Positions 9,109-12,728 of a DNA stretch of 32,000 nucleotides are shown here, one piece after another. The notes below the pieces were generated by a model. The model had not been told where the DNA came from. It saw only the letters and a list, made by a program, of their open reading frames with translations, and searched no databases. The translations under genes and the position numbers were made by a program. How positions within the stretch are numbered: position 1 is the first letter of the stretch; the number at the start of each line of letters is the position of its first letter. The DNA comes from Raphidiopsis brookii D9 (GTDB lineage Bacteria > Cyanobacteriota > Cyanobacteriia > Cyanobacteriales > Nostocaceae), in NCBI GenBank assembly GCA_000175855.1, contig ACYB01000010.1:29464-61463 (forward strand), read 5' to 3'.

Positions 9109-10322
9109 CTACAAATTATCCCCAATTACCTGACGATATTCCCCCTTAGGTTTTACACCCTTCCATTCTTGAATCAACTCCTTGTTTTTAAAAACTTGCA
9201 CTGTCGGTGTACCTACAATTCCAGCATTTTGCGCAATGTCCTGATCCTCATCAATATCAATTTCCACAAAGTGTATCCTCCCATCAAATTCATCCACCAC
9301 CTTGTTAAGTATGGGTTTTAGGGTATGACAAGGACCACAACCAGGAGCAACATACTTTACCACTAACAGGCGATCGCTTTGGTGGAATAGTTTCCTGAGA
9401 GCATAACCACCATGATGGCGTGTTTTCTCTAGATTGAACTCGGTTGGGGGAGTTTCTTGCTGGGGTTGTGTTGTGGATTCTGGAGTTGGTTCCGATTGGG
9501 TTTGATGGAATTCCTGAATTAAACCCCCTAATGATAACCATCTTTCTGCTAATAGTGCTGCTTGACAACCAGTACCCGCAGCGGTAATTGCTTGACGAAA
9601 TTCATGGTCTTGAACATCACCAGCAGCAAATACCCCCTCCAAACTAGTTTCCACACTTCCATGTCCGGTGACAATGTAACCTACCTCATCTAGCTCCAAT
9701 TGTCCCTGAAATAGCTCTGTATTTGGTTTATGTCCTATGGCGTAAAATAAACCCCTAGTAGGAATAGTATTTTCTTCCCCCGTGTGGTTGTTACGCACTT
9801 GCACCCCTACCATTTTCTCCTTACCGATTACATCTACCGCTTCTGTATGCCAGTGAACCTTGATTTTAGAATTACTTAAAACCCGATCCTGCATAGCTTT
9901 AGAAGCACGCATCTTATCAGAACGCACCAATAAATGCACTATAGAGCCATACTTGGTGAGGTAAACAGCTTCTTCCGCTGCGGAATCACCAGCACCAATT
10001 ACCACCAACTCTTGACCTCGAAAAATAGGGGTTGCACCATCACAAATGGCACAAGCGGAAATTCCCCGACTCCAAAACTGGTCTTCACTGGGTAAACCCA
10101 GACGTTTAGCAGTTGCACCAGTCGCAATAATTAAACTATGGGTTTTTACCTCCCTTTCTAAAGAACGAACAATAAAAGGACGCTGACTTAAATTAACGGA
10201 TATCACATCCTCTGTGTACAATTCTGCCCCCCAGCGTTCCGCTTGGGCTTTCATATTAGTCATTAAATCTGGTCCAGTGATTCCCTGGGGAAATCCCGGA
10301 AAATTTTCTACTTCTGTGGTTG
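9109..10322 (-). CDS. ntrc: NADPH-thioredoxin reductase C (NTRC), exon 2
   Basis: The frame is open from 10322. The TrxR core has the redox CAICD motif and the NADPH site [12 protein letters not shown], followed by a linker and a C-terminal thioredoxin with APGCGPC. The first 2 nt (CA) complete a Thr codon begun in exon 1. Confidence 0.9.
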
Positions 10323-10363
10323 GTTAAACTAAACCAAAAGGTCACCCTTTTGACTCGTCTTCA

Positions 10364-10397
10364 GAACCGTGCGTGAATTTTTCAATTCACACGGCTC
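10364..10397 (-). ncRNA. Group II intron domain V (catalytic hairpin)
   Basis: On the minus strand the sequence reads GAGCCGUGUGAAUU-GAAA-AAUUCACGCACGGUUC. This is a 34-nt hairpin with the AGC triad, a 2-nt bulge on the 3' arm and a GAAA tetraloop, matching the universal domain V consensus. Confidence 0.9.
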
Positions 10398-10468
10398 CTC
10401 AATGGGGTGGGACTTGTCTTGTCTACCTAGCATACTGTTTTTAACAGCTTTTACCTGGGGATTAATAC

Positions 10469-11895
10469 TTATTCAGATCTCCTTTCACGCTTCCTTAATT
10501 TCAAATCTTGGTGGATATATTGGTGCTTCATCAGTTCGTAGGTTTTACCCTCCGAGTTCTGATGACAAAATCTCCAACCCTCTTTGCAGATTGACCAGTA
10601 TTTTTTACTAATCCATCTCTTACCTTTTTGGTTGTGTCTTCGTCGTGACCAAGCTCTTAGTTTAGAGTGCAACTCAAAATCTACCTTGCCAAAAATGCGA
10701 TCGCTTATTAGGGGAGAGTAGTATTTTGTCCAGCGTTCAATTAAGGGATTAAGCCTACTGATTAGCACCGATTGTTTAGCGGATCGGTGCTGGTCAATAA
10801 TCGCTCCCAGGGACTGAGTATGGTGTTCTAGGCTTTCTTTACTAATAGAAATCAAAGTGTTATAGCTGGTGTTATAATGGGGGGAGCCTAAATCGGAGTT
10901 TTGAGATGATTTATCATGTGATTTGTCTTGAGCGACAAACTGTCTAATATAAAACCCCAAAAAGTTACAACCCACATTTCCCTGATAATCATAGAGACTG
11001 TGGGAGACCCTTATCCCTTCCCCTTTTAGCTCTAAACCCACTTCTGATAGCCATTGAGTAATAATATGCTCACACAGAATAATCACTTCCAATTCCTGAT
11101 GCACCAGTACAAATCCACCTCTGTGCTTAACAAAGTGAGGAATTACATCACAGCTAGAAGTAGTAATACCAGCTTGATTAGAATCAGCTATTAGACTAGT
11201 CAAGGACCAATTAATCCTCCGTTCCAATTCCCCCAGAGCTGCACCCAATAAAAGGGAAGGTAGGGAAAATTGTTGGTGATTGAGAAAACCCAACTTCAAC
11301 CATAATTTGATTTGTTTCCCCAGCAATGGAAAAGTATTAAGCTGCTTGAGGAAATATTCAGGGTTAACCCCCTGGAAACTTTCTTCCAACTCACCAGCTA
11401 AAACATACTTAGGTTTTTTACCACTTCCCTGCGAATAGACCTAACAGCATTATAACAAGAAATATCAGAATTAGCCTCGTGTAAACCCAAATTGAACTTT
11501 GCATCCCATTCTGGACTCATAGCCATACTAATAAGCAAAGTTAGAGCCTGGTTATATATAGCAAACACAACCAAAGAAAGATTTTCCTAACCAGTAGTGA
11601 TTTGGCAATAACAGAGATTTCCTCAGCCAAGACCAGTTTTTGTTCAGGAGAGAAAGATTTAGCACCCTGGTTTGGTGGAAATACCCCCTTCACAGCAATA
11701 CATCTTGCTGACCAAGATTTAATTAACAGCTTCTGGAGCTTATGAACCGTTTTGACATCCCCACGCTGCGAGGCTTTGTATATTCTCTTTTGCAGCTTAA
11801 AAACATGACGTTCCAGTTTTTTCCAGGGAATTTCTTGCCAGTTTACATCTGACCCAATTTCCCCGGGAACTGACCCATTTGTTTTTCCATTCCAT
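10469..11895 (-). pseudogene. Decayed intron-encoded reverse transcriptase/maturase
   Basis: RT-0 is recognisable (DVNWQEIPWKKLERHVFKLQKRIYKASQRGDVKTVHKLQKLLIKSWSA) but out of frame with the ATG at 11895. Three frame changes and in-frame stops follow. The last 306 codons (11389-10469, TTG start only) are open and keep the X/maturase block (LISRLNPLIERWTKYYSP...LRAWSRRRH), but YADD is replaced by HRGG. Confidence 0.8.
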
Positions 11896-12571
11896 CCTCA
11901 AGTTATTTTCGGCCTTGGACATTTTTACTGCTACTTAAAACCATACATTCCAACCCATCGTGTCTACGTCAGCTTATCCTTTGGCTCTCCCAAAGGCCAA
12001 TGCTTCTTAGACAATCCCTCCTACTATGTTGCTTGCGGTTAGCACCTACTCAAGTTTTCGACCTCAACTCAAGAGCTAACATAGAGGTTACTTCGTTCCT
12101 AATCTCCGTTTGGCGTTAGTTTTAGAACCTCTCTCTCCACCGGGTTACTTCTAGGGTGCAAGGTTGCAAATAATGAATTTTCCAACCCTCTTCACCATTC
12201 CCATTTTAGTTGGCTTATTGGTCATTACGATGGTTCTGTCGAAAGTTTGACCCCTAGGTCTGTTCATGACTAACTGTGCTAGAAGGGATTCCCAGTCGGA
12301 CTCTATAGGTTACCTCCGTTTATCCCCGCTTCATTCGTTTGATGGCTAGTCTCTCCAATGGGGGATATGCTTTCACCCATGCACCTTGGGGGAAGGAATT
12401 ACCTGATATTCAACAATGTTCAGGTTCACCTTCACGAAGATTAAGTTATCTGGGTTTATTCCACCCAGTGACCTATCCCTCAATCTAATGTTCGATTATG
12501 CAAGTTGTAGCTATTCTACAACTATTATCTGCACTCGTAATTAGGATTGATTTCAGATCAACGAATCGCAC

Positions 12572-12728
12572 TCATTAGTTGACCACCAGGTAAACCACCT
12601 GTTGCAAATCCTTCAAACACAATCGGTTTTAAATTGGCTCTTCCAGCATAAATAGCTGCTGTATATCCAGCTGGTCCAGAACCAATAATCACTAGATTTT
12701 CCGCGTTTTCTACTGTCGACTTGGTCAT
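12572..12728 (-). CDS. ntrc: NADPH-thioredoxin reductase C (NTRC), exon 1
   Basis: The ATG at 12728 gives [52 protein letters not shown] plus 1 nt. This contains the FAD-binding GxGxxG fold that the downstream ORF lacks. No ORF caller lists it because it is only 52 codons before the intron. Confidence 0.9.

Follow-up and report, generated by a model that had tools for sequence, protein, structure and literature searches.

A putative splicing-only group IIB intron within the ntrc gene of Cylindrospermopsis and Raphidiopsis

Most bacterial group II introns lie outside housekeeping genes, while some chloroplast-like ones, notably in cyanobacteria, are found inside them (Zimmerly and Semper, PMC4424553). 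Intron proteins with a degenerate reverse transcriptase (RT) are typical of organelles, as in MatK, nad1I4 and psbCI4; bacterial ones "are rare", and as of 2015 the intron O.i.I2 was "the only known example" (PMC4424553). Here we analyze a 32,000-nucleotide (nt) stretch of the cyanobacterium Raphidiopsis brookii D9 (contig ACYB01000010.1, hereafter the window), in which a group II intron interrupts ntrc, the gene for the thioredoxin reductase-thioredoxin fusion protein NTRC.

Based on sequence comparison across related strains, we put at about 0.85 the probability that an immobilised group IIB intron sits in codon Thr53 of ntrc, is spliced out and now encodes a protein that would serve as maturase only. 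The same estimate covers the intron being a fixed, immobile resident of the Cylindrospermopsis/Raphidiopsis clade.

The interrupted ntrc gene and its intron

The original prediction had placed two ntrc exons on either side of an intron, splitting a motif of the FAD domain, and all of its coordinates are confirmed by our analysis:

12728-12572, minus strand: ntrc exon 1, 157 nt, with 52 codons and the first base of the Thr53 codon; the intron-binding site IBS1 (UAAUGA) is at its end
12571-10323, minus strand: group II intron (IIB, chloroplast-like), 2,249 nt, GUGCG...AAC
10322-9109, minus strand: ntrc exon 2, 1,214 nt; two bases complete the Thr53 codon, followed by another 403 codons and a stop codon

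Joined by script on the minus strand, the exons form 1,371 nt in frame and encode 456 amino acids (aa) plus the stop. The insertion is in phase 1 and splits the Thr53 codon into A and CA, within the conserved FAD-domain motif GGQLM/TTTEVEN (the slash marks the intron site). Exon 1 ends in ...CAACUAAUGA, and the ligated-exon junction reads ...CAACUAAUGA/CAACCACAG... The joined product has the complete organisation of an NTRC: it fuses a full thioredoxin reductase (TrxR) domain, including its FAD motif, NADPH motif and CAIC redox site, to a thioredoxin domain with CGPC. The FAD-binding motif GSGPAG is encoded in exon 1, and the CAIC site, the NADPH domain and the thioredoxin domain in exon 2. 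Pfam finds Pyr_redox_2 at residues 11-304 (167 bits) and Thioredoxin at residues 366-452 (65 bits).

We compared the joined product with 5.8 billion protein clusters; it matched NTRCs that have no interruption, from Nostocales and related cyanobacteria, at 77-84% identity over 98-100% of its length. The Sphaerospermopsis protein aligns end to end at 84% identity; the 30 residues around the junction are identical and there is no gap, which was the outcome expected of a correctly placed intron in the original prediction. Fourteen uninterrupted orthologues are also colinear with the joined exons at the DNA level and thus represent clean empty sites. This set comprises 13 Nostocales and one non-Nostocales, Oscillatoria, and includes Sphaerospermopsis, Anabaena, Trichormus, Cuspidothrix and Cronbergia.

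As foreseen, open reading frame (ORF)-based annotation miscalls the locus. In GenBank and elsewhere, exon 1 is annotated alone as the 56-aa hypothetical protein CRD_00401, the 384-aa ORF at 9109-10263 as "thioredoxin reductase" (EFA74049), and a 306-aa remnant of the intron ORF as the hypothetical protein CRD_00398. All matches at least 94% identical to the joined product among the 5.8 billion clusters are truncated forms of 374-384 aa from Cylindrospermopsis/Raphidiopsis. By exact look-up, all seven spliced NTRC products that we derived (six from Cylindrospermopsis/Raphidiopsis and one from Umezakia) are missing from a 15-billion-protein collection. A 420-aa member (P0281) of the exon 1 protein cluster was considered as an intron-less allele and rejected as an unrelated protein. 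In all Cylindrospermopsis/Raphidiopsis and Umezakia records examined, ntrc is a truncated "thioredoxin reductase" plus hypothetical proteins. As a result, anyone comparing these toxic bloom-formers or reconstructing their metabolism would mistakenly count NTRC as damaged.

The intron itself agrees with the consensus boundaries GUGYG and AY, with GUGCG at 12571-12567 and AAC ending at 10323, and these boundaries are identical in all 10 related copies. An Rfam scan of the whole window at gathering threshold gave two matches, both in the intron. RF00029 (group II domains V-VI) matches 10399-10323 with 55.6 bits against a gathering score of 40, stopping precisely at the predicted 3′ boundary of the intron. 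The plastid IIB domain V family RF04357 reaches 56.4 bits (gathering score 53). In a permissive Rfam scan, the intron matched no D1-D4 family. Assignment to the chloroplast-like IIB class is not a formal classification and rests on the GUGCG start, the plastid-IIB domain V match, homology to the T.el4h intron and the cyanobacterial relatives of the intron-encoded protein.

The elements of the ribozyme are as follows:

12565-12092, minus strand: domain I (approximate, predicted), intron nt 7-480, RNAalifold consensus of eight introns
12224-12219, minus strand: candidate exon-binding site EBS2 (UGACCA), complementary over 6 bp to exon positions -14 to -9 (UGGUCA)
12176-12171, minus strand: exon-binding site EBS1 (UCAUUA), perfect 6-bp complement of the last nucleotides of exon 1, UAAUGA
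12087-12020, minus strand: domain II (approximate), intron nt 485-552, RNAalifold
12013-11961, minus strand: domain III (approximate), intron nt 559-611, RNAalifold
10398-10363, minus strand: domain V, with AGC triad, 2-nt AC bulge and GAAA loop, Rfam
10360-10326, minus strand: domain VI, a 15-bp helix with GUGA loop at 10345-10342 and the putative branch-point A bulged at 10330

We predicted domains I-III with RNAalifold from the 5′ 650-720 nt of eight intron copies; in the outer stem of domain I, intron nt 7-12 are predicted to pair with nt 475-480. An ORF starting at intron nt 650 follows in the domain IV position and then domains V and VI, which completes the six-domain layout. The positions originally given for domain V, the GNRA loop, the bulged A and EBS1 are all correct. 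A10330 is the sole bulge in the continuous helix of domain VI and lies 8 nt from the 3′ splice site.

To score domains V-VI, we aligned seven copies (six distinct sequences) from three lineages to an explicit structure. Standard pairing is found in all 180 cells (30 pairs), the 15 pairs of domain V included, and the proportion falls to 27-53% when the 3′ partners are slid by one to three columns. Compensatory double changes occur twice: the pair that closes the GAAA loop in domain V changes from U-A to C-G, and one pair of domain VI from G-C to A-U. All single-sided changes are G-U wobbles. Between Cylindrospermopsis and Umezakia, nucleotide identity is 90% in domains V-VI and 83% in the 5′ part of the intron, compared to 73% in the ntrc exons and 60% in the intron ORF.

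The predicted pairing of exon and intron at EBS1 also holds. EBS1 lies in the terminal loop of a predicted domain I hairpin (RNAalifold), and the pairing is maintained by covariation: in Umezakia, exon position -5, the wobble base of a Leu codon, has changed from A to C, and its EBS1 partner from U to G. There the pairing reaches 9 bp, UCAUGAGUU with AACUCAUGA, compared to 6 bp in Cylindrospermopsis.

From this anatomy we propose that ntrc would be transcribed as a precursor of about 3.6 kb, in which the intron would fold into its six domains and EBS1 would hold the end of exon 1. The 2′-OH of the bulged A10330 would then attack the 5′ splice site, and ligation of the exons would yield the mRNA for the 456-aa NTRC. 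NTRC expression would then depend on splicing.

The intron-encoded protein and the frameshifts of strain D9

The original prediction of RT/maturase-like coding sequence in domain IV is borne out by Pfam: the reading frames of the window's intron match RVT_N at 83 bits and the group II maturase domain GIIM at 56 bits. The coding features are:

11922-10469, minus strand: gene of the intron-encoded protein, in domain IV, split in the window into three frames by three 1-nt indels
11880, minus strand: frameshift 1, one A more than in any other strain (AAA for AA), at about codon 14 of the intron ORF
11585, minus strand: frameshift 2, an A missing from an A5 run
11419, minus strand: frameshift 3, an A missing from an A7 run
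11389-10469, minus strand: 306-aa ORF (TTG start) downstream of the frameshifts, with a remnant of RT5-7 and the maturase X domain

In related strains the ORF is intact and encodes 488-530 aa with RVT_N and GIIM. RVT_1 has no match in the Cylindrospermopsis proteins (best 13 bits, cut-off 29.6), compared to 117 bits in Umezakia and 158 bits in the metagenomic contig L010. Alignment with intact relatives shows that the Cylindrospermopsis/Raphidiopsis proteins have lost RT1 (TAGVDG) and most of RT2 by deletion, that RT3 has changed from LDAD to LAGE and RT5 from YADD to HRGG, and that RT4 (TPQGG) is gone, with RT0, RT6-7 and domain X retained. The HNH endonuclease (En) domain is absent as well. 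The catalytic RT motifs and HNH of an active mobile RT/maturase are thus both lacking. The L010 protein has the full RT-X-HNH layout with YADD intact and HNH present (46 bits). The Umezakia protein has only a truncated HNH remnant, together with YADY, TPQRK and degraded RT1/2.

The closest solved structure is the T.el4h IIB maturase/RT (6ME0, E = 2.5e-20), whose IRYADDFV aligns with VKHRGGFV and whose thumb aligns with the X region of the intron protein. A kept domain X/thumb beside a degenerate RT, with GIIM found in the window ORF and its relatives, is the MatK type of organisation.

We next compared selection on the gene and on the intron protein in seven strains, with synonymous divergence (dS) of up to 0.13-0.17. 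The spliced ntrc coding sequence (CDS) has a ratio of nonsynonymous to synonymous divergence (dN/dS) of 0.10-0.15, and both exons are intact in 7/7 strains. The intron ORF has a dN/dS of 0.27-0.39; most comparisons give lower values for its N-terminal and X regions, and the former RT region lies at 0.30-0.49. The synonymous excess of the deepest pair is significant for the whole ORF (binomial p = 6e-7) and for the former RT region (p = 5e-5), and all 11 internal indels of the ORF in the seven strains are multiples of three.

An open, selected ORF is therefore what we see in seven related strains, and the window copy differs from them by its three frameshifts. The original view of undamaged exons beside a decayed intron ORF stands for the exons and for the D9 ORF, and does not hold for the ORF of the related strains. 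In R. curvata NIES-932 (4352-5935 of its contig, L001) and C. curvispora GIHE-G1 (4322-5914 of L002), the ORF does not have the stop used in D9, CENA303 and L003; it reads through domain V, in NIES-932 also through domain VI, to give 527-530 aa. Since these ORFs run into domain V, the C-terminal tail appears to be unconstrained.

Taken together, the protein seems to have lost polymerase and endonuclease and yet to be still needed, for which a splicing maturase is most simply the reason. By analogy with MatK in plastids, we infer that it would now be solely the splicing maturase of its own intron.

Whether D9 still has this protein depends on its three frameshifts. The D9 assembly was built from 454 GS20 data at 27x coverage and very few Sanger reads (PMC2821919). 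Should the frameshifts be homopolymer miscalls, D9 would encode an intact maturase of about 490 aa like that of the near-identical C. raciborskii CENA303 (98.6% identity over 14.9 kb shared), a possibility that falls only a little short of even odds. All three indels are in A-runs (A2 to A3, A5 to A4, A7 to A6), all other 1-nt differences from CENA303 are at runs too, and the ORF is intact in all other strains. Moreover, three independent frameshifts are many for so short a divergence: between the two strains the intron ORF has only nine substitutions, and the exons have none.

Nonetheless, we lean slightly towards real and recent decay. D9 and CENA303 differ in none of the 59 runs of at least five bases in 9.0 kb of flanking housekeeping CDS, compared to 2 of the 14 such runs of the intron ORF (Fisher p = 0.035), and for runs of at least two bases the counts are 0 of 1,853 and 3 of 315 (p = 0.003). 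One of the indels is an A2 to A3 change, and 454 sequencing at 27x rarely miscalls a run as short as A2. Strain CS-505, read with the same 454 chemistry, has an intact ORF. The sole other frameshifted gene nearby is a pilin gene, also dispensable.

That pilin-like gene (N_methyl/Pilin_GH; 12961-13484, plus strand) encodes 174 aa in CENA303, NIES-932, GIHE-G1 and L003. In D9 a 1-nt deletion at 13268, in a C6 run, leaves ORFs of 126 and 45 aa, and the gene may be a second pseudogene unless a 454 error is responsible.

If the intron ORF of D9 has really decayed, the strain may represent a natural mutant of the maturase. Splicing would then proceed through the X domain of the residual 306-aa ORF, through host factors or unaided; failing that, D9 would be losing NTRC.

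Distribution and alternative explanations

We fetched the locus from NIES-932, GIHE-G1, CENA303 and the C. raciborskii metagenome-assembled genome L011, and from further contigs of Logan (L003-L005, L012, L013) and of JGI metagenomes. Every fetched Cylindrospermopsis/Raphidiopsis locus that spans the site contains this intron, 2,238-2,341 nt long, at an identical position. The empty sites lie outside the clade: at least 14 other cyanobacteria, 13 being Nostocales, lack the intron.

Among the matches listed for the intron protein, those from Cylindrospermopsis/Raphidiopsis all belong to the ntrc-intron family, and the nearest relatives outside are 44% identical and come from other taxa. These relatives, too, are encoded within ntrc at the identical site, both in Umezakia ovalisporum (L006-L009) and in L010. 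The intact L010 protein (cluster P0125) groups at 90% identity or more with Anabaena subtropica FACHB-260 and several metagenome contigs; the ntrc intron may have come from this lineage, in which it would still be mobile. A metagenome scan with the 5′ junction pattern returned four contigs only, all from two lineages already known. A scan of genome contigs with NTRC found no Cylindrospermopsis/Raphidiopsis locus among 80 loci, possibly owing to a masked region; these are mostly non-cyanobacterial TrxR and were used solely for empty sites.

The intron-bearing hosts share 74-76% NTRC identity, compared to 84% between the window and the intron-less Sphaerospermopsis. As they are not each other's closest NTRC relatives, the distribution is patchy, as would result either from repeated homing into this conserved position or from one ancient insertion that was later lost precisely in some lineages. 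The copies in L010 (full RT-X-HNH) and Umezakia (En-less, with YADY) look like earlier stages of the same domestication. We consider it probable that a free-living cyanobacterial clade has fully domesticated a mobile group II intron within a core redox gene, a process otherwise known chiefly from organelles. The retroelement would have turned into an immobile intervening sequence whose own RT-dead maturase is maintained by selection, with a series at one site that would run from a full RT-X-En protein through an En-less YADY form and an RT-dead form to the frameshifted ORF of D9. If true, this is a natural time series of introns losing mobility and of host genes coming to need splicing.

An alternative is that ntrc is dead in the clade, inactivated by the insertion, its exons being relics that are never joined. 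Annotation pipelines indeed see only fragments of ntrc, and the maturase frame of D9 is broken. However, both exons are intact in every strain examined, the catalytic motifs GSGPAG, CAIC and CGPC are all kept, and the exon dN/dS of 0.10-0.15 is measured over a dS of 0.13-0.17 built up since the strains diverged; with both exons intact, such values would not be expected of a gene that the insertion had killed, and they are strong indirect evidence that the intron is removed. The ribozyme core is also perfectly paired and more conserved than the exons, and the intron protein is itself under purifying selection. We therefore regard a dead gene as very improbable. The strong conservation of exons and ribozyme alike means that the intron is almost certainly spliced.

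It is still harder to credit that the Cylindrospermopsis/Raphidiopsis intron is an active retroelement whose own retrohoming accounts for its presence in three lineages: patchiness and the full RT-X-HNH version at the same site would fit, but the protein has neither RT motifs 1, 2 and 4, nor the two catalytic Asp motifs, nor the En domain, the listed matches from the clade all fall in the ntrc-intron family with the next at 44% in other taxa, and mobility may well fit the copy of the L010/Anabaena subtropica type instead.

Several points weigh against an immobilised and spliced intron with a maturase-only protein. Splicing, the branch point and the maturase activity are all things that we infer. 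The fold of domains I-III is an RNAalifold prediction with only four compensatory pairs among closely related sequences. The candidate EBS2, which is predicted to be paired within a stem (RNAalifold), is the same UGACCA in Umezakia although the exon differs there, and thus shows no covariation. Umezakia has instead GUUGUCCA (nt 393-400 of L007), a perfect 8-nt complement of its own exon positions -14 to -7, and the 27-nt segment that holds it, just 5′ of the EBS1 hairpin, is missing from the Cylindrospermopsis/Raphidiopsis introns (compare window 12190-12176). These introns may have lost or relocated EBS2. Finally, the D9 frameshifts, all in A-runs of a 454 GS20 assembly at 27x, are possible artefacts, and with D9 and CENA303 identical in their exons, dN/dS is uninformative on ntrc since the putative loss of the maturase.

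Elsewhere in the window we also observed other features. NIES-932 (L001 645-1883), GIHE-G1 (L002 549-1784), L003 (715-1953) and L011 carry, between their GTPase and DUF4327 genes, a gene that encodes a Ser/Thr kinase of 411-412 aa with an FHA domain; it is absent from D9, where the corresponding position is about 14586-14620, and from CENA303, a lineage-specific deletion. A 195-nt direct repeat at 13674-13868 and 20086-20279 (94% identical) is a short dispersed repeat, both copies of which are wholly or mostly intergenic, the second overlapping only unconfirmed ORFs. The gene for ribosome-binding factor A (rbfA, minus strand) has a 27-nt in-frame deletion at about 1722 in D9 compared to CENA303.

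Comparison with known splicing-only introns

NTRC is a central NADPH-dependent antioxidant and redox regulator, and its expression would depend on the folding of a ribozyme and on a maturase, which makes splicing a possible extra control point. Our full-text literature searches found no description of this intron, in line with the original prediction, nor of group II introns in Cylindrospermopsis, Raphidiopsis or Umezakia.

The T.el4h intron and the other Thermosynechococcus IIB introns (6ME0, 6MEC, 8FLI) are likewise cyanobacterial IIB introns with an RT0-RT-X layout. They differ in having an active RT with YADD, where the protein of the window has HRGG, and in being proliferating mobile elements outside conserved genes. 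In Trichodesmium, dnaN and RIR carry chloroplast-like group II introns, and these probably rely on RT-competent proteins. Like the ntrc intron, cyanobacterial housekeeping-gene introns are chloroplast-like residents of conserved genes that must splice efficiently (PMC4424553); the host gene and the clade are different here.

The trnK intron with MatK, of land-plant chloroplasts, is a group II intron fixed in a needed host gene, whose protein has lost the upstream RT motifs and En, has kept domain X, is encoded by an open and selected ORF and acts in splicing only (PMC4424553). That system is a IIA intron of an organelle with several client introns, whereas the ntrc intron is a IIB intron in a free-living bacterium, RT0/RVT_N is still recognisable in its protein, and we see no sign of other client introns. 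O.i.I2, in radC of Oceanobacillus iheyensis, is a bacterial intron in a protein-coding gene whose ORF has lost YADD and other RT motifs and has no stops (PMC4424553). It is of the ML class (IIA), its host is a Firmicute and its maturase role was concluded from one open ORF; the ntrc intron adds population-level dN/dS, in-frame indels and apparent intermediates in related taxa.

The ntrc intron is thus of a known kind, a splicing-only intron with a MatK-type protein, and a rare bacterial case of it. With many sequenced strains, measurable selection, apparent intermediates and culturable hosts, it opens the MatK-type transition to experimental test. What is new compared to O.i.I2 is not a principle but a different intron class and phylum, evidence of selection at the population level and apparent intermediates.

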